The notes under the pieces are model-generated. The model was not told the DNA's origin. It did no database searches and was given only the letters and a program-made list of their open reading frames with translations. The translations under genes were made by a program, and so were the position numbers. DNA of 64,000 nucleotides from Eledone cirrhosa (Eukaryota): the NCBI GenBank assembly GCA_964016885.1, contig OZ024741.1, forward strand, positions 392,832,001 through 392,896,000. Reading direction: 5' to 3'. Positions 4,268 to 64,000 of this stretch are shown here, piece after piece. Position 1 is the first letter of the stretch. Every line of letters begins with the position of its first letter.

Positions 4268-4400
4268 TTTTTTTCTTTTTTTTCTTTTTTCTTTTTTTCT
4301 TTTTTCTTTTTTCTTTTTTCTTTTTTCTTTTTTCTTTTTTCTTTTTTCTTTTTTCTTTTTTCTTTTTTCTTTTTTCTTTTTTTTTTTCTTTTTTCTTTTT
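4268..4400. repeat. (TTTTTTC)n-type tract, probably the A-rich 3' tail of the adjacent CRE element
   Basis: Visible simple repeat lying directly downstream (minus strand) of the CRE 3' UTR. Confidence 0.75.
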
Positions 4401-6228: not shown

Positions 6229-6304
6229 AATTATTACTTTGATGATTTTAATAACCTGTCATTTTCGTTCAACTAATTTATTTACATTGGCGGGGGATTG
6301 GCAG

Positions 6305-35024: not shown

Positions 35025-35039
35025 ATTATTATTATTATT

Positions 35040-38320: not shown

Positions 38321-38528
38321 ACGACATTAAAACAGTTATGATGAAAGCATAAATATGCTTGAGAAACTGCTTATTACGTTGAAAGGTTATGTTAGCGTCA
38401 TCAATAGAAACCACTTGCTTATTTTTTTTAAAAGGTAAGCATCATTTTTTCCTTTTAGCACAATAAGCATAGGACAACTAAGAATATAAACCCAGTAACA
38501 GTCAAAATTCATCTACAATACGCTTGAA

Positions 38529-39065
38529 ATGGCGGAATTGGATGATGTTTTTCGTGCATTCACTAAACTTGCAGGTGCAAAGAACCCTGAAGATGAAAAA
38601 CAAATGAACTCTAAAGCTTGTGCAAAAATGGTTAAAGACTGTTTACCAAAAGAAGTTATAACAATAGCAGATGCATCAGTATTCCCAAAATATAAAGAGA
38701 GAAACAAACCATATCTCCTTATTAATAACTTTCAAAGTTTCGTACGTGGTTGTGCACATGAGTACGCCAAATCAAAAACCAAAAATCTTAAATTGCCAGA
38801 AAATGATCCACACGTGGATAAATATTACAAAGAATTTGTTGAACGCTTAAGAACTGGGAGACCAAACGTTAAAGAAATAAAGGTTTCTGAAACAGGTAAT
38901 GTCTCTGGTCTTACAGATGCATCGAATTATACAGGAAGCCACAGAGAACGTTTTGATAGGGAAGGAAAAGGAAAAGGAATAACTGGTCGAAAGGATATGA
39001 TGGACGATCAGGGTTACGTCAAAGGATATAAAGGTGAAGGGACATATGAGGAAAAAAATAAGTGA
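38529..39065 (+). CDS. TPPP: Tubulin polymerization-promoting protein (TPPP/p25-alpha family), single coding exon, 178 aa
   Basis: Intact ORF with GAAATGG start context. N-terminal F.AF..., MNSK...K..KDC, VF.K; C-terminal LTD..NYTGSHRERFD..GKGKG..GR and GYV.GYKG.GTY, which are diagnostic of p25-alpha. Confidence 0.93.
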   Translation: MAELDDVFRAFTKLAGAKNPEDEKQMNSKACAKMVKDCLPKEVITIADASVFPKYKERNKPYLLINNFQSFVRGCAHEYAKSKTKNLKLPENDPHVDKYYKEFVERLRTGRPNVKEIKVSETGNVSGLTDASNYTGSHRERFDREGKGKGITGRKDMMDDQGYVKGYKGEGTYEEKNK

Positions 39066-39329
39066 CTTTTAAATTTAGATTTGAAGATCAACAACTTTCA
39101 TATTCATAGAAATTGTTACTGGGACTATATATCTGATATTTTACTATATTTCCAATCTTGATGTATCTGTCAAGAAAAAATATAGAAAAAATACAACTTT
39201 TGTTGAATGTTTCTAAATTGAACTTGCAACAGATGTTATACATAACTAAAAGCATCTGTGGTTGATTAGACTTATAAAAAGTATTCAAGCAGTCCTTTTA
39301 TATTAATTGTATTTCATTTAGAAATTATT

Positions 39330-41098: not shown

Positions 41099-41104
41099 TA
41101 ATTA

Positions 41105-44100: not shown

Positions 44101-44150
44101 TTTTGATTGTATTAGTGGTAATTGAGGATTAGAGTCCGGCCCATTATATC
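41105..44150 (-). mobile_element. Degenerate R4/Dong retrotransposon (family D, copy 2), interrupted by a Helitron
   Basis: Near-identical in long blocks to 35040-38320; CRIC..ETVNHIVSGC, HD and NQPDI motifs. Confidence 0.88.
41357..41864 (-). mobile_element. Non-autonomous Helitron (508 bp)
   Basis: Minus strand starts TCATAATATAAAAAGGG and ends in hairpin ACCACCC-GAT-GGGTGGT plus ATTTCTGCTAG. Inserted at A|T with no TSD. Removing it restores the Dong frame WKMKTNTIPIIISALGMI. Confidence 0.88.
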
Positions 44151-44484: not shown

Positions 44485-44754
44485 GAAATGGAAAAATTGA
44501 GAGAGGGCGCTTGCCCTGGAGGTCAGGGTGGCCATGGTCTTTTGTGTGGTTTTCGCCACGAGTAACCCTCGGAGGTTTCCTCCCTATTGGGGAATTTTTT
44601 CATTGTTTCAATTTTCATTTTTATTGTTTATAAATATATATGTTTCTATGTCTTTTTTTTCTTTTCTTATATAACTAATAAAAATCTTTACACGCACAAA
44701 ACCCACATCGTATCGTCCTGTGCCGTCTGTAATATTTTTCTTGTGGCCAATAAA

Positions 44755-44756
<2 letters not shown>
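44485..44756 (+). mobile_element. Tx1-clade LINE, 3' UTR only (severely 5'-truncated)
   Basis: GAGGGCGCTTGCCCTGGAGGTCAGGG and CCCTATTGGGGAATTTT match 54099-54196. AATAAA is followed by (TTA)n. Confidence 0.78.
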
Positions 44757-44825
<69 letters not shown>

Positions 44826-44835
44826 GTCGTTATTA
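44757..44835. repeat. (TTA)n spacer between Tx1 and Dong 3' ends
   Basis: Directly visible. Confidence 0.97.
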
Positions 44836-45805
44836 CTCTTTGAGTCTCAGTATTTTGATGTTAGTTAACTGGAAAGTTTGTTGAAATGAATATCAAGCCA
44901 CTACCTGCAGCCTCAGATATTCAGGACGTATCGGAGGGTTCTTGCTGTTCCCAGCAAGCATGCCTTTTGAAGCGTTCCAAAAAGCGTGAAAGGGCCAATT
45001 TTCTCTTTAACCATCCCTGGAAACCTTTTGAGATAGTCCCTAGTGCGCCTATGACAATCGGGATCACTTTGACTTCATGGCAGTTCCAAATCCTTTTTAC
45101 CTCCCACTTTAAGTCCTGGTATCGGTTAATTTTCTCCCTCTCCTTCTCTTGCACTCTCGTGTCGAATGGGCAGGCCACATCCACAATCAGGCACGATCTT
45201 TTTTCTTTGTCCACAACCACCAGGTCAGGTCTATTGTGTTCCAGTTTCTTGTCCGTCTGTATCCTAAAATCCCACAGCACCTTCACCTGATCGTTTTCTA
45301 TCACCGACTCTGGCTTATGCTCATACCACTTCTCAGAATGTCGTAAATTGTTTACTTTGCATAGGTGCCAGTGGATCACCCTGCCCATCACATCATGTCT
45401 CCAGCCCTTATAGTGAGTCTGGGCTAGGTGTTTACACTCGGATACAATGTGAGCCACAGTCTCCTCTCTCTCTCCACAGATCCTGCACAGTGGGCTAGCC
45501 TCCTCCTTGTAAATATGGTGTTTCAACCACTTCGTTTTGAGGGCCTGCTCCTGCGCAGCCATTAACATTCCTTCTGTAGCCTTTTTAAGGTCTCCTCTTT
45601 TCAACCAGTTCTATGTCTGTGGATCTCTAAATTCAGTTTTCTCAAAGAAGGTACTATGAAGGGATTTTTCATGAAGGCTGCTCTTTCTCCTTGATGTTAT
45701 TTCCTCCTTGGACATCCCCTGGCCTATTGTCCCCTCCTTCAGTACAGTTCTGAGTATTGGCTCCTTACTATCAGTCACGTATTTGTGTAGGTTGTTTTTC
45801 TCCAT
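44836..45805 (-). mobile_element. 5'-truncated R4/Dong retrotransposon (family A)
   Basis: AAQEQAL, CRIC..ETVAHIVSEC, RHD, NRPD..D, EKINRY. Bounded by (TAA)n on both sides. Confidence 0.92.
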
Positions 45806-45826
45806 TATTATTATTATTATTATTAC

Positions 45827-48348
45827 AGTTGCATTTATCTTGCTTTATGTTCATACGAGTTATCACCAAGTCACAACCAGTGACCTCAAGAGACAACAAG
45901 GTCCGCCATGTTCAAGAAAGAACATATATACTCACACATGCATCTTTAGTGTTTAGACTTGTGATGTACTTATATTGACAGAATCTTCCTTAGTATATGG
46001 GAAGGTCCCATTAGTACTATCTTTTGTATTTCTCCTATACGCGGGTTTCCTGGGATTTGCGATAAGTAATCAATAGACCCCTTTGGTATCATTCCCAGAG
46101 CGCCTACAACCACTGGTATTGTTTTAGTTCTCAATTTCCACATTTTTCCAATTTCTATCTCCAGGTCCTTATACTTGCTCAATTTTTCAAATGTTTTTAT
46201 AGATACATTCTTGTCTATTGGAACAGACATATCAATTAGCAGGCATACCCTCTTTTTAAAGTCCTTCAATATTATATCAGGTCTATTTGCATCTATTTTT
46301 CGGTCTGTTTGGATGCTAAAGTTCCACAAGATTGAGATGTGATCTTTTTCAAGTATGGGAGGTGGTTGATGCTCCCACCAATTCTTTTGATGGGGCAGGT
46401 CAAAATGCTTACACATTATCCAATGTATGTATTGTGCAGCTCTGTCATGCCTGTTTAGGTATTCGGTTGGAGCTATAGGACTGCACATTGAAATTATATG
46501 GTCAATGGTCTCTGGTTGTTTTTTGCATACACGGCATAATGGGCTGCACCCATTTTTTATTATGTTGGCTTGGTAATTTTTTGTTGGCAGACACTGATCT
46601 TGTGCGGATATAATCAGTCCTTCAGTCTCCGATTTCAGTCCAGAGGATGCCAACCACTGATGGGTTAAAGTTTTGTCAACATCAGGATTGTTAGCTCGTT
46701 CTGGGTATTTTCCATACAGAGGCTTTTCTTGCCATTTCTTAGCCAGTTTCTGTAGCAGTTCTTTCTTTGCAGTTACTTTTACCTGCTTTGCTTTTTCTGT
46801 GTTTTCCATTTCAGCAGTAAATGGGACTTCTGAAATTTGTAGTCCATTACTGTATCTTTGTGCATCTTTTGTAATGGAATATGATCTTTTGATGCTTTCG
46901 TGTTTCAAAACGAGTTTGATCATCCAATCATGTGATTCCCTTAGATATGTAGATAATCCAATTGTTGCAGTTTTCAACGCAATGTCTAACTGGACTAACC
47001 CACGTCCTCCTTCTTTCCTAGGGAGATATATTCTATCTATATCTGCCTTAGGGGGATGCATTCTGTGCATGGTTAAGAATTTTCGAATTTTTGTATCGAG
47101 CCTACGGATCTCTGTGCTTGACCAGTTGATGACATTGTAACTGTAGGTTACTACTGGTATGGCAAGCGTGTTTATGGCATCGATCCTATTCCTTGCATTC
47201 AATTCCGTTCTTAAGATTGCTCTTACTCTGCGGTAACATTCCTTCCTTATCCTTTCCCTCATTGTCGAGTGCTTGATTCCGTCTCCTTCACAAACACCTA
47301 GATATTTGTAAGTTTTTTCTTGATCAAGTTCTCTTATAAAGTTCCCCCGATCAAGATTAATGTCTGAACTCTTCAGCAGCTTTCCTCTGGTGAACGTTGC
47401 TTTGGCGCATTTATCTAGTCCAAACTCCATTTTAATGTCATCACTGAACTGCTTCACAGTGGATAATAGCCCTTGCAATTGTTCATCATTTTTTGCAAAT
47501 AGTTTCATGTCATCCATGTAGAACAAGTGATTAATGGTTTTGTCATAGACTCTATATCCATGTTTTGTTTCATTGAGCATTTTACTTAATGGTATAAGTG
47601 CGATGCAGAATAAAAGCGGTGATAAAGAGTCACCCTGAAAAATTCCACAATTAATATTAACTTCTCCAGCTTCCAGTGATTTTGTTTCACTATTCAAAAG
47701 GAGTGTCGTTTTCCATGTCTTCATACTGAATGACAAAAACCTCCCGACAACGGTGGATATTTTGAAAATCTCTAAACATTTTTCAATCCAACTGTGTGGC
47801 AAACTATCGAATGCTTTTTTATAATCTATCCAAGCAATCGATAGATTTTTGTGTCTATTATGACAATCTTCCAGTATCATTTTGTTAACCAGAAGCTGAT
47901 CCTTACAGCCATATGAGCCTCGTTTACACCCTTTCTGCTCAATGGGAAATAGGTCATTTGCTATCAGGTGGTCATATGTGTATTCAGTTAGGACTGATGT
48001 TAAAATTTTATACATTGTGGTCAAGCAAGTTATCGGTCTGTAATTTTTGGGATTGTTTGTCTCATCATTCTTCGGAAGCAGGAATGTAATGCCGTTAACT
48101 AGCCATGATGGTATCTTTTCTGGCTCCTTAACTATTTCATTGTAAAGTTGGGCTAACAGCTCATGAGACTCTGTGAAGGCATTTATCCAAAAGTTTTGTA
48201 TTTTGTCTTTTCCTGGGTATTTCCATTTGCTGGTTTTTCTTAGAGCCAAGCGCAACTGTTCAACTGTTATATTTTCCCATATTTGTTCCTCAAGGTGAGA
48301 TGTATCTTTCATTTGTCTGTCTATCCATGGGGCATGTATGTTATGAAC

Positions 48349-48350
<2 letters not shown>
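45827..48350 (-). mobile_element. 5'-truncated R4/Dong retrotransposon (family B), young
   Basis: Uninterrupted ORF and 3' UTR, with (TAA)n at 45806-45826 and 48352-48413. Confidence 0.95.
45970..48312 (-). CDS. R4/Dong ORF (RT, CCHC zinc knuckle, restriction-like endonuclease), N-terminally truncated, 780 aa open
   Basis: NYRPITCL, EQKGC, WIDYKKAFDS, GIFQGDSLSPLLF, FYMDD, CRVC..ETIDHIISMC, RHD, NRPD..D, EKLSKY. Confidence 0.9.
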   Translation of the reverse strand: MKDTSHLEEQIWENITVEQLRLALRKTSKWKYPGKDKIQNFWINAFTESHELLAQLYNEIVKEPEKIPSWLVNGITFLLPKNDETNNPKNYRPITCLTTMYKILTSVLTEYTYDHLIANDLFPIEQKGCKRGSYGCKDQLLVNKMILEDCHNRHKNLSIAWIDYKKAFDSLPHSWIEKCLEIFKISTVVGRFLSFSMKTWKTTLLLNSETKSLEAGEVNINCGIFQGDSLSPLLFCIALIPLSKMLNETKHGYRVYDKTINHLFYMDDMKLFAKNDEQLQGLLSTVKQFSDDIKMEFGLDKCAKATFTRGKLLKSSDINLDRGNFIRELDQEKTYKYLGVCEGDGIKHSTMRERIRKECYRRVRAILRTELNARNRIDAINTLAIPVVTYSYNVINWSSTEIRRLDTKIRKFLTMHRMHPPKADIDRIYLPRKEGGRGLVQLDIALKTATIGLSTYLRESHDWMIKLVLKHESIKRSYSITKDAQRYSNGLQISEVPFTAEMENTEKAKQVKVTAKKELLQKLAKKWQEKPLYGKYPERANNPDVDKTLTHQWLASSGLKSETEGLIISAQDQCLPTKNYQANIIKNGCSPLCRVCKKQPETIDHIISMCSPIAPTEYLNRHDRAAQYIHWIMCKHFDLPHQKNWWEHQPPPILEKDHISILWNFSIQTDRKIDANRPDIILKDFKKRVCLLIDMSVPIDKNVSIKTFEKLSKYKDLEIEIGKMWKLRTKTIPVVVGALGMIPKGSIDYLSQIPGNPRIGEIQKIVLMGPSHILRKILSI

Positions 48351-48351
<1 letters not shown>

Positions 48352-48413
<62 letters not shown>
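48352..48413. repeat. (TTA)n spacer at the Tx1 5' end
   Basis: Directly visible. Confidence 0.97.
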
Positions 48414-48623
48414 GGCGTAGTAAATCGTATCATCGTAGTAAATCGTATCATCGTGAGCTCCGCAAAGGTTTGTTATTTCCGTTTGTTAAAAATTGTCATT
48501 TATGGAAAATTTTATTGTTAACTGTTTATAAGCGCACATACATTGTTTTCCGAAAAGGACACCCAAAAAGATGTGCCCAGAATTTAAACTTTTATTATTA
48601 TCAAAAAATTTCTTTGAAAAAAA

Positions 48624-50627
48624 ATGGCTAATTCACCTCTGCACCAAGCAGCTGAAAGCCTTCCTCACAAATTAACACCTCACACCGACACCACCATTGT
48701 AAATGTTACTACGTTTGCCAACACTACAAAAAATATAAGCAGTAGCAATATTTTAAATTTGTCTCAGGCAGACTTTCATTTCCCGCCATTACCAATGACT
48801 GCAGGTGTTAAAGCCTCCACCACCACCACCACCGCGACAACCACCACCCCCACCACCGCCGCGACAACAGAAACAAAAGAAGAAAAAAATAAATTAACTC
48901 GTGATGTCGAAATGAAATCAAGCAAAATGGACTCTTCCCCACCAAAGACGACTGACGTCACGACCACCACAACTGAAACTAAAATTAATATTAACACAAA
49001 TAACGATAGCAACAACAACAACAATGACATTATAAACCTCCCCCCCCCCTCAGTTTCGCCAGAGTAGCAAAACAGTTCGAAGCATTTACGGTAACTCAGG
49101 AGGATTTAGAAAATGCCAAACAAATGGTAAAGAAAGATTGGTACAGGGTCAGCCTCACCCCCACCCCCCACCTAATAAAATGGAGCATCGGCGCCTAGGC
49201 ACCGTGTCGTATCGAACGATAAATGTAAAATCGCGCCGAGTGGAACGGGCATCCGAGTCCCAAATCCAAAAAGCTTTGGGACATGTGTGGGCAAGAAAAA
49301 CCCACATCAGACGTGGGAAGAAGTATGGAACCGTGGACGTGTTCTTTGAAACACCAGAGGAGGCTAGAGAACACTCCATGGCCCCATTAAGAAGTGACGA
49401 CTTCACACTCGTCCCAAGCTATTGTGGCCAGAGACTCGTAAAGATCAGGGTGACCCACGTTCCACCGGCCATCGAAATTCCCTGGCTAATAGCGGCCGTC
49501 CTCGCCGGCATCGAAGCCAACACAAAAATAATAGCAATAGCAAAAGAAAAGCAGGAGAACTGGTCCGGATCTGGGATGGAGCTCCTGATCCAAGCGGACC
49601 AAAAAAGCATTGAGGAGATCCCAGAGGTAATAGACCTCACTGACGGCAGCCACCTCACCGTAATTGTCGAGGGCAGAAGACCTAGGCGTGTCGTTTGTGG
49701 TGAAGGAACCCACCTAAGGGCTTTCTGCCCTCAGGCTAAAAGGTTGAGGCCACCTCTGCTACCCACCCCAGTGACACAACCATCAACACCACCAGTAGCA
49801 GAGATGGCAGCAACAACTGTAGCAGCAACAACAGAAGCAACTATAACAGCAACAACCCCAGCAACAGTAGCAAAACCAACACCACCACCACCACCAGCAA
49901 AACCAACACCACCACCACCCAACGCTTCAGAACTAGCACCAGCGCCTACACCATCCACCACGCCACAACCAAAACTAACGGCTGTGGAGGATTTTCCACT
50001 CCTCGGCCTATCACAACTGGAGACAGATTGTGACGACGAGGAGTGGGAAACGATATCCGGAAAAAAAAAAGAAACCAAAAAAGAAAAAATTCTCTTCCTT
50101 CCCCCTCCAAAAACAAAATACAGAGGGAAACAAATAAATTAAGAAACAAAAAAGTTAGGACAGATATGCCACCATCCACACCAGCATCACCAACCCCATC
50201 AACCCAAACACCAACACCATCACCATCATTAACCCAAACACCACCATCACCTACACCACAAAAGTCACCAAAATGCGAAACAGAAACAAACCCACAACAA
50301 ACGCAAACAAAACAAAACAACCAAAACGATACACACTACACAGCATTAAATTTGAACAACAAGCAATTATTACACTACATCCAACACAACACCAGCATCA
50401 CAGAAAAAGACTACACAACAACCCCAAAATTCACACCACCTCCACACATACAAATCACTCGCATCACACAGAAAACGTACATGACACTAAAACAAAAATT
50501 CCCCAAAGACATCGGAGACTTCCGACAAGCACTCTCCAGGAGGATTTATAAGGACATCCTTCCTGAGGAGGCCACAAGCAGTGAAAAGGATGGAAAAGCC
50601 GTCCTTCCCCTACGAGAAGTAAGGTAA
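48624..50627 (+). pseudogene. Tx1 ORF1 (Thr/Pro-rich, RRM-like region, degenerate CCHC), frameshifted
   Basis: Three consecutive pieces (48624-49067, 49138-50142, 50043-50627), homologous to 28293-28988. Breaks lie near homopolymer runs. Confidence 0.8.
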
Positions 50628-50661
50628 GTGGTCTTTCCCATCTTTTCCACTCCTTTTCAAC

Positions 50662-53600
50662 ATGACCTCACTCAGAATAGGCAGCATAAATGCGCGTGGC
50701 TTGGGGTCGTCATGGAAGCAGGGCCACCTGCTCAACGACCTCAGGTCACTAAACATAGATGTAGTGGCCATCAGCGAGACCAGAATCTCCGAAGCACGGG
50801 CTTTCGCACCGATCTTCGGCGGCTACGATGTGTACGCATCTCCCAGCCGTCCGGGATCGGGGGGAGGAGTTGCTGTGCTTTTTCGGAGAGGTTTGGATCT
50901 TGCCATACGGGCCATCTTCCTGGACCCAGAAGGTAAGTTGGTGGTGCTGGACGTGACCAGCGGAGACGGGCAAGCTTTCAGGTTAGTGGCCGTCTATGCC
51001 CCGACAGGAGCAGGGCGGCCTGATTTCTTCCGGCGTCTGGAGACCTTTCTTGGAACACCCGCTCTTTGGTGTTAGTGGGCGACTGGAACGGGATCTTAGA
51101 TGCACGCTGGGACTGTGTGGGATTAGTGGATAGGGGTGGAGGGTGCAAGAGCCTCACCAACCTGCTCAGGCGTTTTGAACTGTCTGACAGGTACCGATTG
51201 GATTTCCCGAATGTGCCAATGTGGACTTGGACAAATCGCATAGGGTCATCCAGATCAAATCTAGATAAAGTATTTTGTAGGGAAATAGATAGGTCTAGCA
51301 TAGGCTGTCCACAATTCAAGATAGTCAGCTACACGGACCACAAATTCGTGATCTGTGTGCTTGACTTAGATAGGCTTCATAGACGAGGACCCGGCTACTG
51401 GAAGCTAAACGCGTCCTTACCAGCGCGCAAGGCCTACAGAGACCGGATTAGCGAACTAGTTAAGCGGGCGTTGACGGGGGCCATCGTCAACAACAAGTGG
51501 TGGTTTGCTCTGAAAAGAGCAATTAGAATAGAGTCCATTAGGTTTAGTAAGACTTTAGCAATAGAGAAAAATAGAGCAGAGGGAGAATTAGTTAGAAAAT
51601 TAGATGAGGCGCTTAGCAAAGGCATCGCGACCGACGTACTTGCGGCGAAATTGGCCCTTGACCAATTCTTCAATGCAAAGCACGAAGGCTGCGTTGTCAG
51701 AGCTAGGGTGCGTGCTCTCAGACACGAGGGGACGAAAGCCGTTCAATGGGCCCGAGTGGCGGAGGCGCGTCGTGGCAACAAAGCCACGATCCGGTCTTTG
51801 GTGGACCACGACGGGCGCATGCTACTCGATCCCGGGCAAATGTGTGAAGCTTTTCAGCGACACTTCGCTCAACTGTTCGGGGGCAGTGGCGGGCCGGATC
51901 GAGGGATGGACTTTAGTGTCTACCTCGACGGACTGCCGCGGCTTTCGGCCACTGAGGCGGAGTGTTGCGAAAGGCCGATAACAACCGCTGAAGTACGGGA
52001 TGCAATGACTAGTTGCACAAGAGGTAAATCGCCTGGTTTGGATGGTCTGCCCTATGAACTTTACGTACAAATGCCAAACTTGTTCGGAGGCCTCTTGGCG
52101 GACGTCTACTGCAACTGGCAACAGAACGGGAGAATTCCCAGCTCTGTGAGCCGAGGAGCGGTGGCGCTGCTGAGAAAGGATCCGAACAAGGGGGATAACA
52201 TAGATAATTTTAGGCCCATAACTCTGCTAAACACAGAGTTCAAGATTTTGGCCAAGGTGCTAGCAAAGAGGTTGGCGCTTGTCGTTGGTGGTCTGGTGGG
52301 AGAGGCACAGACATGCGCCATTCCCGACAGATCCATCCACGACAACCTCCACCTCATGCGATACATCGTAGAGAGGGTAGCTAGGGAACCTGGCACGGGT
52401 GGGTCTTTGATCAATTTAGATCAGTCGAAAGCCTTCGATAGGGTCGACCATCGTTACCTAACGGCAGTCCTGAGGGCGGCTGGCTTTGGGCCCGTCTTCA
52501 GAGGCTGGATCGCTGCCATGCACAGCGACATCTGCTCTGTAGTGAGAGTGAACGGTCACCTTTCGGAACCGTTCAACATCATGCGCTCGGTCCGCCAAGG
52601 ATGTCCCCTCTCGTCCCTATTGTACGTATTGACTCTCGAGCCATTACTGCACAAACTGGAGACGTTGAGGGGTTCCCGCGCGAACTAGGATGCGGAAGAT
52701 CCGTGTCAGCATATGCCGACGATGTCACCGTAGTGGTGTCGAACGCCAAACACATCGAGGCGATCGGCACTACACTAAGAGAATACGAAGCGGTGACAGG
52801 AGCAATGATCAACCAGGAAAAGTAAGTGGGCCTGCAGCTCGGCACCTGGAGAGGCAGGTCCATGCCGTCCAACAGCGTCGTCGGGCGCTGGACGGACGGA
52901 CCGGTTAAATTGCTAGGGGTCTGGTTCGGTCCAGACCTCCAGACGGACAAAAACTGGGACGAGGTGACGAGCAGGGTGGCTTCTCTCACCCAGAAATGGG
53001 CCGAGAGGAAGCTATCCCTGAAAGGTCGAGCGGAGGTGGCGAATGCGTACATCGCATCCGTCATCTACTACCGCCTGACCGTCGTACCTTGTCCTAAGCC
53101 CCGCCTGACTGCGCTGGAGCGTTTGCTCTTTCGCTTCTTGTGGAAGGGACGCGCTCCGATGGTCAGGCGGTCCATCTGCTGTCAACACCCGCTACGTGGA
53201 GGGCTGGGCATGCCGTGGCTGATGATGCGCAGACACGCGCTCAGGCTACGACATCTCCACCTCTTCCTCGACGGTGATCAGGTGTGGTCGCCGTTTGCTA
53301 GACACGTATTGCCCCAGCTCGTTTCCTTGACGGAGCTGCAGTCCTGGGTCAAGCGAAGACCGAGAGGGAGCGCTTGGAGACTGGAATGTCTTCAGGCGCT
53401 CACAGCCCTCGACCAATCGGGCAATGTGATCGGTGGAAACTCCACCTTGGCGCTCTATAGGGGATTAGTGGAGGGGAAGAGCGACGACGTACTTGGAGAA
53501 ATTCTAGGCGTCGACGAAAATCAACTAGCCAATCTCTTCGGAAGGACTTTCGGGCCGGGGCCTATAGACAACTTCCAGAAATCCCTGGCCTGGCAGTGCT

Positions 53601-54078
53601 ACCGAGGAGCTTTGCCAGTTCGGGATAAACTCTACAGGCATGGAGGTGCCGTCAGCCGGGCATGTCCGAGATGCGCGCAGGGCGACGAAACCGTCCTGCA
53701 CGCACTCGTCCAGTGTCCGAGCATTGCTGACTTGTGGGTTTATGTCGAACACCTGCTGTCACGTGTAGGACGGATCCAGCTATCAGCTGAGTCCATCGTG
53801 AGGATTGCCCCGCCCCCTTCCTTTAGCCTGGAAGGGCAGGCAGTTTTTATCTGTCTGGTGGCCATGGCGAAAGAGATAGTATGGTGGACACGTTTGAAAG
53901 GGCTGAAGACGAGCACTTACCTCTTCGGTGATGCCCTGATTAACTTTTCAAATTTCATTTGAAAAGGAAAATCAGGGTAGAGAGGGAAGTGCTCTCTTCC
54001 CAGCATTTTGTTGAAAGATGGGTGAGAGAAGCAAGTATGGCCCGAATGAATGGGCCTTCTCTGAGTATGTGTCTGTAA
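50662..54078 (+). pseudogene. Tx1 ORF2 (APE endonuclease, RT, C-terminal CCHC) with about 4 lesions
   Basis: INARGL, SET, GGVA, VYAP, GDWN, YTDH, GYWKLN, KSPGLDG, FRPITLLN, LDQSKAFDRVDH, VRQGCPLS, YADD, CPRC..DETVLHALVQC. Frameshifts at ~51060, ~52680 and ~53950, and a stop at ~52823. Confidence 0.92.
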
Positions 54079-54321
54079 ATTAAAGGTGGAAAACTGGGAG
54101 AGGGCACTTGCCCTGGTGGTCAGGGCCACTGTGGTCTTTTAATGGGCTTTCTCCACAAATGTCCCTTGGAAGTCTCCCCCCTATTGGGGAATTTTTCTTT
54201 GTTGTTTTATTTCAACCTCTGTTTTTTTACACGCAGAAATGCCCATTTGTACCGTCCTGTATTGTCCTGTACTGTCCTTAATGTCTACTTTATGTGAACC
54301 CTTGTGGTTAATAAAGAAAAC

Positions 54322-54360
54322 ATTATTATTATTATTATTATTATTATTGTTATTGTTATT
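54322..54360. repeat. (TTA)n/(TTG) spacer between the Tx1 tail and the Dong tail
   Basis: Directly visible. Confidence 0.97.
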
Positions 54361-57300
54361 CCTTGAATCTCAGTCATTGATGTTGGTTAACTGGAAAGTC
54401 CGTTGGATTGAATATCAAGCCACTACCTGCAGCCTCAGATATTCAGGACGTATCGGAGGGTTCTTGCTGTTCCAAGCAAGCATGCCTTTTGAAGCGTTCC
54501 AAAAAGCGTGAAGGGGCCGATTTTCTTTAACCATCCCTGGAAACCTTTGGAGATAGTCCCCAGTGCGCCTATGACAATCGGGATCACTTTGACTTCATGG
54601 CAGTTCCAAATCCTTTTCACCTCCCACTTTAGGTCCTGGTATCGGTTAATTTTCTCCCTCTCCTTCTCTTGCACTCTCGTGTCGAACGGGCAGGCCACAT
54701 CCACAATCAGGCACGATCTTTTTTCTTTGTCCACAACCACCAGGTCAGGTCTATTGTGTTCCAGTTTTTTGTCCGTCTGTATCCTAAAATCCCACAGCAC
54801 CTTCACCTGACTGTTCTCCATCACCGCCTCTGGCCTATGCTCATACCATTTCTCAGAATGTGGTAGATTGTTTACTTTGCACAGGTGCCAGTGGATCACC
54901 CTGCCCATCACATCGTGTCTCCAGCCCTTATAGTGGGTCTGGGCTAGGTGTTTACACTCGGACACAATGTGAGCCACAGTCTCCTCTCTCTCTCTCCACA
55001 GATCCTGCACAGTGGGCTAGCCTCCTCCTTGTAGATATGGTGCTTCAACCACTTCGTTTTGAGGGCCTGCTCCTGCGCAGCCATTAGCATTCCTTCTGTA
55101 GCCTTTTTGAGGTCTCCTCTTCTCAACCAGTTCCATGTCTGTGGATCTCTAAATTCAGTTTTCTCAAAGAAGGTACTATGAAGGGATTTTCCCTTAAGGC
55201 TGCTCTTCCTCCTTGATGTTATTTCCTCCTTGGACATCCCCTGGCCTATTGTCCCCTCCTTCAGTACAGTTCTGAGCATTGGCTCCTTACTATAGGTCAC
55301 GTATTTGTATAGGTTGTTTTTCTCCATCTGAACACAGTCCTCTATGCTGATAAGACCTCTTCCACCCTCAGATCTCCTTAGGTAGAGTCTATCGACATCA
55401 CTCCTCTTGTGGAACATGTTGTAGATAGTCAATAGCTTCCTAGTCTTCCTATCCATTTCTTTTTGTTCAGCAACATTCCATCTCAGAATTCCCGCACTGT
55501 ACCTAATAATAGACACAGCTCGGGAATTTACTGCGCTTATGGCATTTCTGCTGTTCAGATGTGACTTCAATACGCTCCTTACTCTCCGAATGTATTCAGT
55601 TCTTAACAATTCCTTCATTTTTTTGTTCTTTATACCATCAGCCTCCAGAACGCCCAAATACTTGTATCCTTCCTCAGAGTCAATTTCCTTTATCATCTCA
55701 CCTGTTGGTATCTGGATCCCGTTACTTCTGCTCAACCTACCCCTCCTCATCACAATGACTCCACATTTACCAATACCAAACTGCATACATATATCACTGC
55801 TGAAAATACGGACAGTGTCAACAAGCACATCCAACTCCTTCTCACTTTTCCCGAAGAGCTTAAGATCGTCCATGAAGAGGAGGTGATTGATGGTAAGCTC
55901 TCCCCTTCCCAACTTGTATCCTGCTCTCACTTTTCGCAGCATAATGGTCAAGGGCATCAGGGCAAGGACAAACAACAGAGGGGACAGGCTATCTCCCTGG
56001 AAGATACCTCTCTTGATCTTCACGCTTCCCAAGGATACTCCCGTTGATGTCAACTCTGTCTCCCAGGACCCCATACTCCTGCCCAGCAACTGTCTGATGT
56101 TATCTGCCACCCTGAAGATCTCCAGGCTTTTGGTGATCCAGGAATGAGGCACCATGTCAAATGCCTTTCTGTAGTCTATCCATCCCATGGCAAGATCAGT
56201 GTGTCTCCTCCTGCAATTCCCCATTACCATCTTATCAATAAGCAACTGGTCCTTTGTACCACGTGACTTCTTTCGGCATCCTTTCTGTTCGTCCGGTAAC
56301 AAGTTGTTTGTGTGGAGGTGATGGTAGATTTCCTCAGACACAATGCTCGTCAACAGTTTCCACATTACGGGCAGACATGTGATAGGTCTATAGTTGGTAA
56401 CATCATTACCCTTGATTCGGTCTTTCATTATCAGAACTGTGGTACATTTTGTCAACCACTCTGGCACCTCACCCGACACCAAGCAGTCATTGAACATGGC
56501 CGTCAGCTTCGGGTGGAGGGATGTTAAATGTCTAATCCAATACCCCTGCACACCATCTGGGCCTGGTGATTTCCAGTTGGTTAGTTTTTTGGCTTGCCCC
56601 TTAAGAGCTTCAACTGTGATACTCAAATCAGTCTGTTGTTGTGCCTGCTCACCGATCTCCCTCTGTACTGTCTCAATCCACCCTGCCTGGGCATTGTGTC
56701 TAACATCCTGCTCCCATATTCCTCTCCAGAATGTTTTAGCTTGTTCCGCCCCAGGGATCAAGTCGTTGCCTCTTTCTTTCCCCTCAAGCTGTCCAAACAG
56801 CATCTTCTGGTTGTTGTCGAACATGCGGTTCTGTTTATACTGACTGACTCTGTTCTCGTATCGCCTGATTTTTGCACTCTTTGCTACAATGCGTTGCTTC
56901 AATTCCTCTATGATAATATTTAGCTTTTTACTCCTAGTTTTGTATTTTATTTCCAGTCTATTTTTAGTGCCTATGTTTTTTAGTGTCCCATTCAGTAGTG
57001 ACTCAAGCTTTCCTATGTCATTTCTCATTTCCCCGATTTGCCCACTCAGTCGCTTCTTCCACCACGGCTCTGCTCTTTCTTGTCTGTTGTTTCCTCTCGC
57101 TTTTATACCAAGTAGTTTCCTCACCGTATTTGCTGTTGCTTTGAGGATATTGTTGCACTGGTGAAGGCTTCTCGCCTCAAGGTATGGGATGACTTTGTTT
57201 ACCTTAGCTGTTGTTTCTTTTAACTTTTTCCTGTCTACAAATCTTAGGTTCATAGGTCTCCCACTATCATTGTTCAATTCATCTACCACTAAATTTAGGA

Positions 57301-57835
57301 TGTCAACCGAATCTTGTCCTAGCCCGTCAGCATTCATCTCCTCAGTGGCCGTATCTCTGTTCCAGGTATTATTTATCTCAGAGTCAAGGGGTGGTGGCGG
57401 CGGCGATGGGATAGTGGTGGTAATGATGGCCGTAGTGAGCGGTGGCGGTGAAGGTGAAAATGTCGTTATCTGGCTGTTGTGTTTAGTGTACACAGATGAT
57501 GGGGTGGGTGGTGTATCTAGTTTCTGGTGTTGGTGAGTTTAGCTGTCCTATATAGTGTAGCCAGAGGAGAGGAGGGGGGGGGGGGGGGTTCTTCTTCTTC
57601 CATTTATAGCCATTTTCTTTTTTGGATATACAGTGTACAATACAAAGTTGAATATTTGAATATTTGAGCCTTATAACAATATATTTTGGGTCCGAATTTT
57701 TTGGGGCTCAAGCCGGGTGCTTTACGTAGCATTTGTACTAAGAGTTGTTATTTCACAAATGATTTAAATATGTTAAAAATTCAAAACTTACGGGAGCGAT
57801 TTCATGACCTCCGTCACCTCGTGCGTCTTCTTCCC
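54361..57835 (-). mobile_element. R4/Dong retrotransposon (family A, copy D1) with a ~1.06-kb internal deletion
   Basis: Same 5' end (GGGAAGAAGACGCACGAGG) and 3' end as 57877-62720. Deletion junction at 57380/57381. (TC) expansion frameshift at ~54985. Confidence 0.93.
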
Positions 57836-57950
57836 TTATTATTATTATTATTATTATTGTTATTGTTATTGTTATTCCTTGAATCTCAGTCATTGATGTT
57901 GGTTAACTGGAAAGTCCGTTGGATTGAATATCAAGCCACTACCTGCAGCT

Positions 57951-60900
57951 TCAGATATTCAGGACGTATCGGAGGGTTCTTGCCGTTCCAAGCAAGCATG
58001 CCTTTTGAAGCGTTCCAAAAAGCGTGAAGGGGCCGATTTTCTTTAACCATCCCTGGAAACCTTTGGAGATAGTCCCCAGTGCGCCTATGACAATCGGGAT
58101 CACTTTGACTTCATGGCAGTTCCAAATCCTTTTCACCTCCCACTTTAGGTCCTGGTATCGGTTAATTTTCTCCCTCTCCTTCTCTTGCACTCTCGTGTCG
58201 AACGGGCAGGCCACATCCACAATCAGGCACGATCTTTTTTCTTTGTCCACAACTACCAGGTCAGGTCTATTGTGTTCCAGTTTTTTGTCCGTCTGTATCC
58301 TAAAATCCCACAGCACCTTCACCTGACTGTTCTCCATCACCGCCTCTGGCCTATGCTCATACCATTTCTCAGAATGTGGTAGATTGTTTACTTTGCACAG
58401 GTGCCAGTGGATCACCCTGCCCATCACATCGTGTCTCCAGCCCTTATAGTGGGTCTGGGCTAGGTGTTTACACTCGGACACAATGTGAGCCACAGTCTCC
58501 TCTCTCTCTCCACAGATCCTGCACAGTGGGCTAGCCTCCTCCTTGTAGATATGGTGCTTCAACCACTTCGTTTTGAGGGCCTGCTCCTGCGCAGCCATTA
58601 TCATTCCTTCTGTAGCCTTTTTGAGGTCTCCTCTTCTCAACCAGTTCCATGTCTGTGGATCTCTAAATTCAGTTTTCTCAAAGAAGGTACTATGAAGGGA
58701 TTTTCCCTTAAGGCTGCTCTTCCTCCTTGATGTTATTTCCTCCTTGGGTATCCCCTGGCCTACTGTCCCCTCCTTCAGTACAGCTCTGAGCATTGGCTCC
58801 TTACTATAGGTCACGTATTTGTATAGGTTGTTTTTCTCCATCTGAACACAGTCCTCTATGCTGATAAGACCTCTTCCACCCTCAGATCTCCTTAGGTAGA
58901 GTCTATCGACATCACTCCTCTTGTGGAACATGTTGTAGATAGTCAATAGCTTCCTAGTCTTCCTATCCATTTCTTTTTGTTCAGCAACATTCCATCTCAG
59001 AATTCCCGCACTGTACCTAATAATAGACACAGCTCGGGAATTTACTGCGCTTATGGCATTTCTGCTGTTCAGATGTGACTTCAATACGCTCCTTACTCTC
59101 CGAATGTATTCAGTTCTTAACAATTCCTTCATTTTTTTGTTCTTTATGCCATCAGCCTCCAGAACGCCCAAATACTTGTATCCTTCCTCAGAGTCAATTT
59201 CCTTTATCATCTCACCTGTTGGTATCTGGATCCCGTTACTTCTGCTCAACCTACCCTCCTCATCACAATGACTCCACATTTACCAATACCAAACTGCATA
59301 CATATATCACTGCTGAAAATACGGACAGTGTCAACAAGCACATCCAACTCCTTCTCACTTTTCCCGAAGAGCTTAAGATCGTCCATGAAGAGGAGGTGAT
59401 TGATGGTAAGCTCTCCCCTTCCCAACTTGTATCCTGCTCTCACTTTTCGCAGCATAATGGTCAAGGGCATCAGGGCAAGGACAAACAACAGAGGGGACAG
59501 GCTATCTCCCTGGAAGATACCTCTCTTGATCTTCACGCTTCCCAAGGATACTCCAGTTGATGTCAACTCTGTCTCCCAGGACCCCATACTCCTGCCCAGC
59601 AACTGTCTGATGTTATCTGCCACCCTGAAGATCTCCAGGCTTTTGGTGATCCAGGAATGAGGCACCATGTCAAATGCCTTTCTGTAGTCTATCCATCCCA
59701 TGGCAAGATCAGTGTGTCTCCTCCTGCAATTCCCCATTACCATCTTATCAATAAGCAACTGGTCCTTTGTACCACGTGACTTCTTTCGGCATCCTTTCTG
59801 TTCGTCCGGCAACAAGTTGTTTGTGTGGAGATGATGGCAGATTTCCTCAGACACAATGCTCGTCAACAGTTTCCACATTACGGGCAGACATGTGATAGGT
59901 CTATAGTTGGTAACATCATTACCCTTGATTCGGTCTTTCATTATCAGAACTGTGGTACCTTTTGTCAACCACTCTGGCACCTCACCCGACACCAAGCAGT
60001 CATTGAACATGGCCGTCAGCTTCGGGTGGAGGGATGTTAAATGTTTAATCCAATACCCCTGCACACCATCTGGGCCTGGTGATTTCCAGTTGGTTAGTTT
60101 TTTGGCTTGCCCCTTAAGAGTTTCAACTGTGATACTCAAATCAGTCTGTTGCTGTGCCTGCTCACCGATCTCCCTCTGTACTGTCTCAATCCACCCTGCC
60201 TGGGCATTGTGTCTAACATCCTGCTCCCATATTCCTCTCCAGAATGTTTTAGCTTGTTCCGCCCCAGGGATCAAGTCGTTGCCTCTTTCTTTCCCCTCAA
60301 GCTGTCCAAACAGCATCTTCTGGTTGTTGTCGAACATGCGGTTCTGTTTATACTGACTGACTCTGTTCTCGTATCGCCTGATTTTGGCACTCTTTGCTAC
60401 AATGCGTTGCTTCAATTCCTCTATGATAATATTTAGCTTTTTACTCCTAGTTTTGTATTTTATTTCCAGTCTATTTTTAGTGCCTATGTTTTTTAGTGTC
60501 CCATTCAGTAGTGACTCAAGCTTTCCTATGTCATTTCTCATTTCCCCGATTTGCCCACTCAGTCGCTTCTTCCACCACGGCTCTGCTTTTTCTTGTCTGT
60601 TGTTTCCTCTCGCTTTTATACCAAGTAGTTTCCTCACCGTATTTGCTGTTGCTTTGAGGATATTGTTGCACTGGTGAAGACTCCTCGCCTCAAGGTATGG
60701 GATGACTTTGTTTACCTTAGCTGTTGTTTCTTTTAACTTTTTCCTGTCTACAAATCTTAGGTTCATAGGTCTCCCACTATCATTGTTCAACTCATCTACC
60801 ACTAAATTTAGGATGTCAACCGAATCTTGTCCTAGCCCGTCAGCATTCATCTCCTCAGTGGCCGTATCTCTGTTCCAGGTATTATTTATCTCAGTATTCA

Positions 60901-61339
60901 GATCATTGTCTGCTTCGGGTGGTTCCTCCGTTCTCAGGACCTCCTCACCTTCATTTCCCGCCGGCTCGCTTGTCTGGCATACTACACCCGCCATCTCCAA
61001 GCCATTCTCTCTGCTCAGTTCCTCCAGTTCTAGCTCGCTTATCCACCCATTAGTTCTTATTACCCGAGCCTGCCCGGCCAATTTTTGTTCATCTAATTTA
61101 AATAAACCAATCTCGTTCCAGATGTTATGCATCCGTCTCCTGTAGCCCCTCTCCTTGGGGTTACTTTTCAGGTAGCATTGCATAACAGTTCTATTCAATT
61201 CTTTCGTCCAGTTGGTTCTGGCCCCTTTCCTTCTTCTTCCTCCAACATCAGCAGTATTTGGTTGACAGTCAGGTTCCTGCTGCTGAGCCAGGGGGCACCT
61301 GTTGGGTGAGAGTCTGTCACATGACGTTCTAGTCTCCAT
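57951..61339 (-). pseudogene. R4/Dong polyprotein (~1129 aa if a 1-nt deletion at ~59255 is corrected)
   Basis: N-terminal WT.E.N..VM.CY..S.P..RGYRRRM..IW motif, RT (FMDD), CCHC and RLE (RPD..D). The sister copy D1 has the missing C. Confidence 0.9.
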
Positions 61340-61908
61340 TTCACCGTTATTCGAACTGTTTATGTTCGATATTTAAACACTCTTATCGAGGATTGGCGAA
61401 TGTATGTTTACATAGCCATCTGTGGATCCGCCATCCCACTTGGCCCTTGTGTGGCATTATCACCACGCTGTATACGGACACACATAAACAAACAAACACA
61501 CGGGCAGAAAGGGCCCCAAAAATGAATAAGCATAAGTTTCATTGTAATGTAGTATTCGAATGTCTGACTTAGTTTTTGTTTTTTAAGTTTTACTTTTTCC
61601 CCCCTCTTCTCTGTCCGTCCGCCTGCTTCTCTCTTCATTCTTATTTTCTTTACGTTTTTGGGGTTTCTTTTTTTGTTTTTGTTTTTCTCTGTTTTTCTCG
61701 TTTTTTACTGTTGTTGCTGTGCTGCTTTTGTTGTTTGTTTTTTCTTTTTTCTTTTGAGTCTATCTATATATTTTGATGCCTTCCTCTTTGTTAGTAGTAG
61801 GAATTCTATAATGTGGAAGTGGTAGCCAGCAGAGACTGGCGGCGTTGGCGATACTGAGACAGTGGTGGTGGTGATGTCGATACCGAGGCAGTGGTGGCGG
61901 TGATGCGA

Positions 61909-62554
61909 CCGTATTACTGTAGTGATGGTGCTGTAGCGGTGGCAGCAGCAGTGAAGGAGTCAAGGGGTGGTGGCGGCGGTGATGGGATAGTGGTGGTAAT
62001 GATGGCCGTAGTGAGCGGTGGCGGTGAAGGTGAAAATGCTGTTGTGTTTAGTGTACACAGATGATGGGGTGGGTGGTGTATCTAGTTTCTGGTGTTGGTG
62101 AGTTTCGCTGTCCTATATAGTGTAGCCAGAGGAGAGGAGGGGGGGGGGGGTTCTTCTTCTTCCATTTATAGCCATTTTATTTTTTTTGGGATATACAGTG
62201 TACAATACAAAGTTGAATATTTGAATATTTGAGCCGTATTACTGTAGTGATGGTGCTGTAGCGGTGGCAGCAGCAGTGAAGGAGTCAAGGGGTGGTGGCG
62301 GCGGTGATGGGATAGTGGTGGTAATGATGGCCGTAGTGAGCGGTGGCGGTGAAGGTGAAAATGCTGTTGTGTTTAGTGTACACAGATGATGGGGTGGGTG
62401 GTGTATCTAGTTTCTGGTGTTGGTGAGTTTAGCTGTCCTATATAGTGTAGCCAGAGGAGAGGAGGGGGGGGGGTTCTTCTTCTTCCATTTATAGCCATTT
62501 TTTTTTTGGATATACAGTGTACAATACAAAGTTGAATATTTGAATAATTGAGCC
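61909..62554. repeat. ~325-bp tandem duplication in the D2 5' leader
   Basis: Units start at 61909 and 62234, with CC microhomology at the junction. Confidence 0.92.
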
Positions 62555-62720
62555 TTATAACAATATATTTTGGGTCCGAATTTTTTTGGGGCTCAAGCCG
62601 GGTGCTTTACGTAGCATTTGTACTAAGAGTTGTTATTTCACAAATGATTTAAATATGTTAAAAATTCAAAACTTACGGGAGCGATTTCATGACCTCCGTC
62701 ACCTCGTGCGTCTTCTTCCC

Positions 62721-62813
<93 letters not shown>
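62721..62813. repeat. (TTA)n spacer
   Basis: Directly visible. Confidence 0.97.
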
Positions 62814-64000
62814 GTTCTTTGAGTCTCTGTCATTGATGTTATTTAACTGGAAAGTTTGTTGAAATGAATATCAAGCCACTACCTGCAGCCTCAGATATTC
62901 AGGACGTATCAGAGGGTTCTTGCTGTTCCCAGCAAGCATGCCTTTTGAAGTGTTCCAAAAAGCGGGGATGGACTAACTTTCTTTAACCATCCTTGGAAAC
63001 TCTTTGAGCTAGTACCTAGTGCGCCTATGACAATCGGGACCACTTTGACTTCATGGCAGTTCCAAATCCTTTTTACCTCCCACTTTAAGTCCTGGAATCG
63101 GTTAATTTTCGCCCTCTCCTTCTCTTGCACTCTCGTGTCGAATGGGCTGGCTACATCTACAATGAGGCACGATGTTTTTTCCTTGTCCAAAACACCAGGT
63201 CAGGTCTATTGGGTCCGTCTGTATCCTAAAATACCACAGCACCTTCACCTGATCGTTTTCTATCACCGACTCTGGCTTATGCTCATACTACTTCTCAGAA
63301 TGTCGTAAATTGTTTACTTTGCATAGGTGCCAGTGGATCACCCTGCCCATCACATCATATCTCCAGCCTTTATAGTGAGTCTGGGCTAGGTGTTTACACT
63401 CGGATACAATGTGAGCCACAGTCTCCTCTCTCTCTCCACAGATCCTACACAGTGGGCTAGCCTCCTCCTTGTATATGTGGTGTTTCACCCACTTCGTTTT
63501 GAGGGCCTGCTCTTGCGCAGCCATTAGCATTCCTTCTGTAGCCGTTTTAAGGTCTCCTCTTTTCAACCAGTTCCATGTCTGTGGATCTCTAAGTTCAGTT
63601 TTCTCAAAGAAGATACTATGAAGGGATTTTTCCTGAAGGCTGCTCTTTTTCCTTGTTGTTATTTCCTCCTTGGACATCCCCTGGTCTATTGTTCTCGCCT
63701 TCAGTACAATTCTGAGCATTGGCTCCTTACTATCAGTCACGTATTGGTGTAGGTTGTTTTTCTCCATCTGAACATAGTCCTCTTTGCTGATAAGACCTCT
63801 TCCACCTTCAGATCTTCTTAAGTAGAGTCTATCGACATCACTCCTTTTGTGGAACATGTTGTAGATAGTCAATAGCTTCCTAGCCTTCCTATCCATTTCT
63901 TTTTGTTCAGCAACATTCCATTTCAGAATTCCCGCACTGTACCTAATAATAGACAGTGCTCGGGAATTTACTGCACTTATGGCATTCCTACTGTTCAGAT
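62814..64000 (-). mobile_element. R4/Dong retrotransposon (family A, copy D3), 3' part; continues beyond the window
   Basis: DVDRLYLRRSEGGRGL, AAQEQAL, CRIC and the family-A 3' UTR, with several lesions. Confidence 0.92.

Follow-up and report, generated by a model that had tools for sequence, protein, structure and literature searches.

Dong retrotransposons target (TAA)n, SART and TRAS elements occupy one repeat in opposite polarity, and tandem arrays can arise by repeated insertion. Described Dong/R4 elements include Dong of Bombyx mori, DongAg, DongBg, and Darwinula Dong1/2. The Dong-like elements studied here resemble these in their single ORF, with RT, CCHC and C-terminal RLE, and in showing no N-terminal zinc finger. 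Unlike them, they comprise two families with several subfamilies, form long stacked arrays, and share their target with an APE-type element, an arrangement that none of the papers searched describes. Tx1 families with described targets include Kibi at (TC)n, Koshi at (TTC)n, crocodilian Tx1 at (TTCC)n/(TTTC)n, and Keno at U2 snRNA. Our Tx1-like element shares their two ORFs, their APE-RT-CCHC ORF2, and their target specificity. However, its target, (TTA)n, is not one of those given for the listed families. Its 3' end, AATAAA...CA directly followed by (TTA)n, also differs from theirs in having no poly(A). As with SART1 and TRAS1 of Bombyx mori, a single tandem repeat receives two families in opposite orientations. 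Recognition by SART1/TRAS1 needs just two to three repeat units (PMC7265360). Both are APE-type R1-clade elements, mostly in telomeric (TTAGG)n, whereas here one partner is RLE-type and the other APE-type. Furthermore, the target here is a dispersed (TTA)n microsatellite that has no known role in the host. Tandem elements formed by double insertion, including R1 arrays, retain the junction target, which allows a further insertion at that site (McGurk and Barbash 2018; PMC5932611). Such tandems are mostly same-family dimers, whereas the arrays here are mixed-clade and polarised, reach at least 13 pieces, and appear to gain target with each insertion. The literature covered, outside Repbase and the supplements of PMC4494074, reports no (TTA)n-specific Tx1-like family. 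Similarly, outside Repbase, it reports no mixed RLE/APE (Dong/Tx1) arrays on one microsatellite.

The window, a 64,000-nucleotide stretch of the Eledone cirrhosa genome, is on a 416-Mb contig, about 23 Mb from its end. The original prediction listed seven consecutive insertions, with only (TTA)n at six junctions, in an array built wholly on (TAA)n. All seven LINE pieces were found in that order and on those strands (Table 1), and pure (TTA)7-30 tracts occupy 6/6 junctions. The wording needed trimming in two places: TTG/TTA variants lie beside Dong-A 3' ends, and TTA is absent from the 5' edge of the leftmost Tx1 fragment. For comparison, (TTA)3 occurred on a given strand, within 40 nt of a random position, in 50/20,000 draws (0.25%). 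Hence, a tract in one polarity at all six window junctions greatly exceeds chance expectation. The whole array is about 41 kb long and has 13 LINE pieces. D3 is followed by six more, up to a right end at window-equivalent position 85761 (G000:C2:392917761). Two junctions in this extension have no tract. Every element copy within the window lacks an unbroken ORF of full length.

Table 1. Elements and junction tracts of the array (window positions).
Feature	Position	Strand	Remarks
Tx1-like 3' fragment (UTR), older subfamily, left array end	44485..44757	+	5' side without TTA
(TTA)22 junction	44758..44823	.	pure tract
Dong-A, 5'-truncated, sister subfamily, ~1 kb	44824..45805	-	CCHC knuckle and RLE region encoded
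(TTA)7 junction	45805..45825	.	pure tract
Dong-B, 5'-truncated, 2.5 kb	45826..48351	-	793-aa open frame: RT (YMDD), CCHC, RPD..D..K RLE motif
(TTA)20 junction	48352..48411	.	pure tract
Tx1-like, full-length, 5.9 kb	48412..54322	+	ORF1 region and ORF2, both broken
(TTA)8 junction, followed by D1 tail variants (TTG/TTA)	54323..54346	.	pure tract before variants
Dong-A D1, both ends present	54347..57835	-	~1.4-kb internal deletion; frameshift near 54990
(TTA)7 junction, then D2 tail variants	57836..57856	.	pure tract before variants
Dong-A D2, full length, 4.86 kb	57857..62721	-	ORF 57954-61372, one frameshift near 59255
(TTA)30 junction	62722..62811	.	pure tract
Dong-A D3, sister subfamily, 3' part	62812..64000	-	runs to ~67685 past window

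Dong-A and Dong-B proteins share 40% identity. Among the Dong-A copies, D3 and the copy at 44.8 kb belong to a sister subfamily and share 90-95% identity with D1/D2, and the 5' UTR of D2 carries a 330-bp duplication. Elsewhere in the genome, several Dong-A copies retain an unbroken natural frame of 1141 aa, with RVT_1, CCHC at 952, and RPD..D..K at 1037; Dong-B is arranged likewise. In a PDB search, R2 proteins were the sole matches. The predicted architecture is that of R4/Dong: one ORF with RT, then CCHC and a PD-(D/E)xK RLE, and no APE. The R4/Dong clade has a divergent N-terminal Myb/SANT-like domain and no zinc fingers (PMC7998251). Pfam found neither Myb nor an N-terminal zinc finger in Dong-A. 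For residues 40-140, unnamed mollusc, arthropod and cnidarian clusters score 0.89-0.90; a Rap1-Myb cluster scores 0.85, which is a lead only. In a quick tree, built from sequences other than named references, Dong-A and Dong-B join unnamed homologues, one of them from the insect Diaphorina citri. Protein searches and cluster look-up returned unnamed or hypothetical homologues, none labelled Dong, R4 or Tx1. At Dong ends, the sense strand reads into (TAA)n in 85/86 cases from three Dong search sets. The TTG/TTA tail recurs, as the same 15 nt, in 13/29 other Dong-A copies; only 6/29 have pure TTA. These variants are an inherited part of the Dong-A tail.

In the full Tx1-like copy, a broken ORF1 region (~48630-50620) precedes an ORF2 (50665-54075) encoding APE, RT and CCHC, with its frame interrupted by frameshifts. 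The leftmost fragment is only ~78% similar to this copy. Elsewhere in the genome, one Tx1-like ORF2 is unbroken. Domains identified are Exo_endo_phos, RVT_1 and zf-RVT and, among solved structures, human L1 ORF2 is closest (181 bits, versus 80 bits for R2). Hence, the predicted layout, ORF1 plus an ORF2 with N-terminal APE, RT and C-terminal CCHC, is that of the Tx1 clade (L1 group). In the same quick tree, made with sequences other than named references, ORF2 and unnamed relatives (~40% identity) make up a separate branch that excludes two U2-inserted elements. The best BLAST match outside this branch is one U2-inserted element, L300 (30% identity, 472 bits; U2 by Rfam). L300 may be termed 'Keno-like' from its target, and the tree does not nest the Tx1-like ORF2 with U2-inserted elements. 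Among 17 distant relatives inspected in metagenomes, none had a (TTA)n flank and two end in U2 snRNA. Full-length Tx1 copies abut (TTA)n at 29/29 3' ends and 29/29 5' ends, and the 5' junction phase is identical in all 29. Tracts before these 5' ends have 6-29 units, with a LINE across the tract in 23/29. PMC4494074 sets the threshold for a target preference at over 20% of flanks belonging to a single sequence type. The (TTA)n preference of the Tx1-like element is far above this threshold.

The same organisation is apparent genome-wide. Note that the search sets contain top-scoring, hence young, copies. Outside the window, 143/144 element ends abut at least three TTA units. A neighbouring element lies across the tract at 106/144 ends (64 Dong, 31 Tx1, 11 SINE). 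The polarity predicted from the window, with Dong-like elements reading into (TAA)n and Tx1-like elements into (TTA)n, recurs in 104/106 neighbours, which refutes random orientation. Nor do most copies lack the 5' repeat, since it adjoins 28/29 full-length Dong-A copies as well as all those of Tx1. The proposed likeness to an interstitial SART/TRAS system was correct for fixed opposite orientation, but not for membership of an R1-clade APE pair on telomeric (TTAGG)n. Both clades are mixed at 12/20 sampled loci, and 4/20 have at least six LINEs within 20 kb. Among tracts with at least 10 units, contact with a LINE was seen for all of the first 14 listed on C1, which fall into six clusters, and for 5/6 in an evenly spaced 590-kb sample. 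Against this background, the window locus itself is unremarkable; its special status was overrated, since such arrays are common across the genome.

Truncated copies indicate where the 5' repeat originates. In 5'-truncated Dong copies, picked by their 3' ends, a tract was present at the 5' junction in 12/12 Dong-A and 8/11 Dong-B cases, with scattered truncation points. Since copies broken at scattered positions still carry the tract, the 5' repeat belongs to the target rather than the element. A tract is present at 42/53 truncated Dong junctions. Microhomology of at least 2 nt at Dong 5' truncations (5/16, versus 22% expected) was not clearly enriched. For 5'-truncated Tx1, only 6/14 junctions have a tract, and the breakpoints of these six differ. 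On inspection, the eight misses were four internal deletions, two two-unit tracts, and two real misses. Targeting of the repeat is not absolute. No target-site duplication of the LINEs is readable where the flank is pure repeat.

A host repeat, in which (TTA)4 is normally followed by (TA)n, permits comparison of filled and empty sites (11,117 exact copies). At C1:67.10 Mb, one copy reads (TTA)17-Tx1(+)-(TTA)19-DongB(-)-(TTA)33-DongA(-)-(TTA)9-(TA)n, amounting to 78 TTA units over four tracts. Another, at C1:235.0 Mb, reads (TTA)11-Tx1-(TTA)14-TATATA. Altogether, three Tx1 copies, two of them full-length and one truncated, lie within host-repeat tracts. As anticipated by the original prediction, tracts flank each insertion on both sides. 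Of host-repeat copies whose tract has six or more units, 22 of the first 30 were empty, which rules out the idea that long tracts require insertion. Because long tracts also arise without insertion, lengthening driven by insertion is unproven, and not all long tracts are hit.

We conclude that the window is, with high probability, a large example of genome-wide arrays in which (TTA)n tracts separate Dong-like (RLE) and Tx1-like (APE) elements, each clade keeping a fixed polarity opposite to the other's, and that these arrays were likely built by repeated target-primed insertion. The notion of a self-renewing landing pad for both element types gains support from tracts at both ends, fixed polarity, frequent neighbours, and the filled host repeat. 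By analogy with the known TPRT pathway, the strand nicked by the Dong RLE would be TTA, and priming would use an RNA with UAA repeats at its end. For the Tx1-like APE, the nicked strand would be TAA, and the priming RNA would end in UUA repeats. Nicks on opposite strands would therefore place the two clades in opposite orientations. Each event would split one tract in two, likely lengthening both through the RNA-borne tail, target duplication and later slippage. An array of k elements would thus offer k+1 targets, and would grow by preferential attachment. Seeds could be element or SINE tails, or tracts expanded by slippage, and tandem duplication contributes to some arrays.

Could Dong alone be sequence-specific? 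Tx1-like elements might carry (TTA)n as their own tail, perhaps also 5', insert loosely at AT-rich ATTAT sites like the SINE, join arrays passively, and supply Dong with tails. SINE insertions occur at short ATTAT(T) sites, carry duplications of 10-20 bp, and for the most part lie outside long tracts. The final bases of the SINE agree with the Tx1 3' end at 15/20 positions (shuffle p ~0.01). Hence, machinery common to both may be loose. The few truncated Tx1 junctions scored positive (6/14), and the leftmost window fragment without a 5' tract, fit this account. Conversely, all 29 full-length Tx1 5' ends follow tracts of at least six units, mostly with a LINE across; the six truncated copies with differing breakpoints follow tracts too, and three copies lie within host-repeat tracts. 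We therefore regard passive entry of Tx1 as unlikely. Still less probable is array growth mainly by recombination, with unequal exchange or tandem duplication through tracts or elements, rather than new insertions. R1 arrays are reported to expand by recombination after double insertion (PMC5932611), and one sampled array (L240/L241) contains a duplicated block with identical truncation point and tract lengths. However, block duplication was seen at only 1/20 sampled loci, and the window array has no repeated unit; its families, subfamilies and truncation points differ. D1 and D2 are 99.17% identical, below the identity of D2 to dispersed copies (up to 99.64%). As each is nearer to dispersed copies than to the other, they are separate insertions, and tandem duplication of D1/D2 is ruled out. 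An assembly artefact, joining repeat copies from different loci through (TTA)n, is the least credible account. All window junctions are simple repeat and no read or contig spans the array. But the tracts measure just 21-90 bp and separate distinct copies that are kb-long and carry private variants; one polarity rule holds at more than 100 junctions; nested cases restore host repeat on either side; and the unique flanks on both sides occur, at low depth and differing at 0-1 positions, in a public run, which may be the source sample and so is not independent.

Returning to repeated target-primed insertion by both clades, we lean slightly towards a broader reading. Most long (TTA)n in this 3-Gb genome may be retrotransposon-made, reused junctions. 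The RLE clade and an undescribed (TTA)n-specific Tx1-like lineage would nick opposite strands and multiply each other's targets. The polarised arrays produced by this feedback would number in the order of ten thousand, and the SINE would ride on Tx1-like machinery.

If true, (TTA)n is a new target among Tx1-like site-specific elements, and the two clades form a natural pair whose endonucleases, unrelated in fold, recognise a single repeat on opposite strands. Because young copies with unbroken ORFs exist, direct assay is possible. The mechanism would also be a simple, testable explanation for LINE hot spots where Dong-R4 and L1-Tx1 were recently active. Such recent activity is reported for Octopus vulgaris, with the cause unstated (PMC13282606). 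In such genomes, (TTA)n markers are predicted to be mostly transposon junctions.

The original prediction described seven consecutive LINE insertions, beginning at 44485, with Dong-like copies (RLE-type families Dong-A and Dong-B) on the minus strand and Tx1-like copies (an APE-type family) on the plus strand. Self-comparison, Pfam and translated search of the window (G000:C2:392832001-392896000, in the 3.0-Gb assembly) recovered this order and these strands. As claimed, (TTA)n separates the seven pieces at all six junctions, in each case as a pure run. No (TTA) tract was found at the left array edge (44485). In the 40 kb downstream of the window, the array continues to window-equivalent 85761. 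The whole array spans 41.3 kb and contains 13 pieces of LINEs and four of SINEs. The extension has five further inter-element tracts, of 7-21 units each, and two junctions where a tract is absent.

Tracts within the array, and SINE copies in locus L091 (SINE positions are window-equivalent, continuing the window numbering downstream)
Feature	Pure TTA units	Position
(TTA)n tract	22	44758-44823
(TTA)n tract	7	45805-45825
(TTA)n tract	20	48352-48411
(TTA)n tract	8	54323-54346
(TTA)n tract	7	57836-57856
(TTA)n tract	30	62722-62811
SINE copy		65808-65922
SINE copy		66784-66968

Older, decayed copies immediately upstream (34932-38400 and 39324-44104) obey the array polarity. Here, a Tx1 3′ end (plus strand) is followed by (TTA)4, at 35026, and a Dong-like 3′ end (minus strand). 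These intervals also contain further decayed Dong-like copies, on the minus strand. Decayed Dong copies also flank an unbroken TPPP/p25-alpha ORF (38529-39065, plus strand). Since the ORF is intronless, and two paralogues elsewhere on the contig (50-71% identity) have three exons, it is likely an old retrogene with its frame retained. A broken Helitron with Rep and PIF1 domains occupies 12682-17304, and a further, RT-bearing LINE fragment lies at 2869-6258, both on the minus strand.

Dong-A has a single ORF (1141 aa, stop to stop), unbroken in several copies outside the window; it encodes RT, CCHC and an RPD..D..K motif. Dong-B shares this layout, is 40% identical to Dong-A, and matches only R2 proteins in the PDB. 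The Dong-A N-terminus gives a weak match, a Myb-like lead that fits the divergent Myb domain of R4/Dong elements described in passages of PMC7998251. The Tx1-like family has ORF1 and ORF2. The latter (APE-RT-CCHC, 1138 aa) is unbroken in one copy outside the window, and its nearest solved structure is human L1 ORF2. Among copies in the window, none has an unbroken full-length ORF. In a quick tree, made with no named references, the Tx1-like family branches separately, together with unnamed proteins at ~40% identity; outside this group, its best match is a U2 snRNA-inserted element. Therefore, 'Dong' and 'Tx1' are labels by architecture and target, and phylogenetic membership of these clades is putative. 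Two metagenome Tx1-like elements (L298:4675-4885 and L300:5815-5977) have a 3′ poly(A) joined to U2 snRNA, which is the Keno-type arrangement. In the Dong-A 5′ UTR (61909-62561), a 330-bp unit is present once, twice or three times among young elements. Twin-priming inversions are familiar from L1, not from RLE elements. Two Dong-A loci, L087 and L250 (in L250, the 5′ portion of the Dong-A copy on the left), have an inverted 5′ segment, then a TTA tract, and resemble such inversions.

For each of five own-genome searches, 40 candidates were scored and the best 30 loci used. Note that these are top matches and, hence, young copies. Removing six loci of the present array left 144 ends, with one junction (L003/L158) counted from both sides. 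At least three TTA units adjoin 143 of the 144, in the expected polarity (Dong-like elements reading into (TAA)n, Tx1-like into (TTA)n); the background is 50/20,000. The original prediction placed 5′ junctions at the repeat, and this held among these young copies for 28/29 Dong-A and 29/29 Tx1 ends. Equivalent 3′ counts are 29/29 (Dong-A), 28/28 (Dong-B) and 29/29 (Tx1). For Dong copies selected by 3′ end, and with the match ending inside the locus, a tract follows the truncation break in 12/12 Dong-A and 8/11 Dong-B cases. A broader tally of truncation-like junctions found tracts at 42/53 for Dong and 6/14 for Tx1, and is biased because many copies came in as tract neighbours. The Tx1 misses, on inspection, comprise four internal deletions, two junctions with two-unit tracts and two real misses. 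The phase of full-length Tx1 5′ junctions is identical in 29/29; that of Dong-A varies. Junction (TTA)n often grades into (TTC)n, (TTG)n or (GTC)n (L012, L075, L154, L170, L177, L186, L216), so compound microsatellites may originate there.

Across the tract, a further element is present at 106/144 ends (64 Dong, 31 Tx1, 11 SINE). The claimed fixed orientation relative to (TAA)n was borne out by 104 of these 106 neighbours. The exceptions are an inverted segment within a Dong-A copy and an apparent SINE-like piece in a Dong-B library entry. For 20 of the loci, 20-kb views show both clades mixed in 12 and at least six LINEs in four. Among 59 evenly spaced 10-kb stretches, seven family matches are confined to three, and 5/6 tracts of at least 10 units adjoin a LINE. 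An exact ten-unit search gave 196,920 overlapping matches, or an estimated ~27,600 tracts, assuming the first 100 matches are typical. The first 14 tracts listed (six clusters) all contact a LINE: nine on both sides, two with a SINE opposite, and three on one side. A geometric model of array size, rough and based on young copies (LINE-neighbour probability 95/144), puts at least seven elements in 8% of arrays and at least 13 in 0.7%. Therefore, on this rough estimate, the 13-piece array is large, yet dozens like it would be expected genome-wide. The array is real, and the first reading of it was correct. It is one case of a genome-wide regime, not a special place.

Empty and filled sites were compared using an abundant host repeat, (TTA)4 then (TA)n, with 11,117 exact genomic matches, compared with 231 matches that carry six or more TTA units. 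The first 30 long copies listed comprise 22 empty expansions, four leading to a LINE, three to a SINE and one to unknown sequence. Two filled copies read host-(TTA)17-Tx1(+)-(TTA)19-DongB(-)-(TTA)33-DongA(-)-(TTA)9-(TA)n and host-(TTA)11-Tx1(+)-(TTA)14-TATATA. Thus, a mixed, polarised array is nested within a single host tract, and target repeat remains on both sides of each element, as originally proposed. The empty expansions show slippage on its own to be enough for long tracts, many of which receive no element, so tract lengthening through insertion is only likely.

Origin of D1 and D2, two Dong-A copies in the array, as one duplicated unit was rejected. Their mutual identity is 99.17% over 3 kb, while the best identities to dispersed copies are 99.37% (D1) and 99.64% (D2) over 3 kb. 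Judged by identity, they are separate insertions, because each is nearer to dispersed copies than to the other. In one sampled array (L240-L241, G000:C2:325580503-325600502), a block of Dong-A, SINE and truncated Dong-A is duplicated, with identical breakpoints and tract lengths, so recombination or assembly duplication contributes at some loci. Public contigs, which may be from the source sample, include the unique sequence on either side of the array, at low depth and differing at 0-1 positions, but do not extend across it.

The abundant 185 bp SINE has ATTAT(T) as its insertion site and is flanked by target duplications of 10-20 bp (L091, L095-L153). Its 3′ end shares 15/20 bases with that of the Tx1-like element (shuffle p of 0.003-0.014 in three subfamilies and 0.11 in a fourth), and its orientation in arrays is the Tx1 polarity. 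The SINE is a candidate partner of the Tx1-like element.

Passages in the literature already describe Dong insertion into (TAA)n (PMC3812793, PMC7998251), opposite-direction insertion of SART1 and TRAS1 into telomeric repeats (PMC7265360) and tandems arising by double insertion (PMC5932611). Dong-R4 and L1-Tx1 are among recently active LINEs in Octopus vulgaris (PMC13282606); compared with that paper, genome size and repeat content here suggest that the host may be an octopod. Whereas the Tx1-like family here targets (TTA)n, passages of PMC4494074 give Tx1-clade targets as (TC)n, (TTC)n, (TTCC)n/(TTTC)n, U2 genes and transposons. The background passages of PMC4640811, PMC4758252, PMC8967140 and PMC3747384 mention no TTA-targeting Tx1. 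In openly accessible literature, with Repbase outside the scope, we found neither a (TTA)n-specific Tx1-like family nor arrays that combine RLE and APE elements on one microsatellite.

Repeat on both flanks, a fixed polarity, stacked elements and host tracts filled by nested elements were all observed directly. In established TPRT, the cDNA-priming strand is the first to be nicked; the predicted cuts are thus in the TTA strand for Dong and in the TAA strand for the Tx1-like APE. Dong-A tail variants are inherited, which suggests that RNA terminating in the repeat could base-pair with the freed primer. At every insertion, one target would become two.
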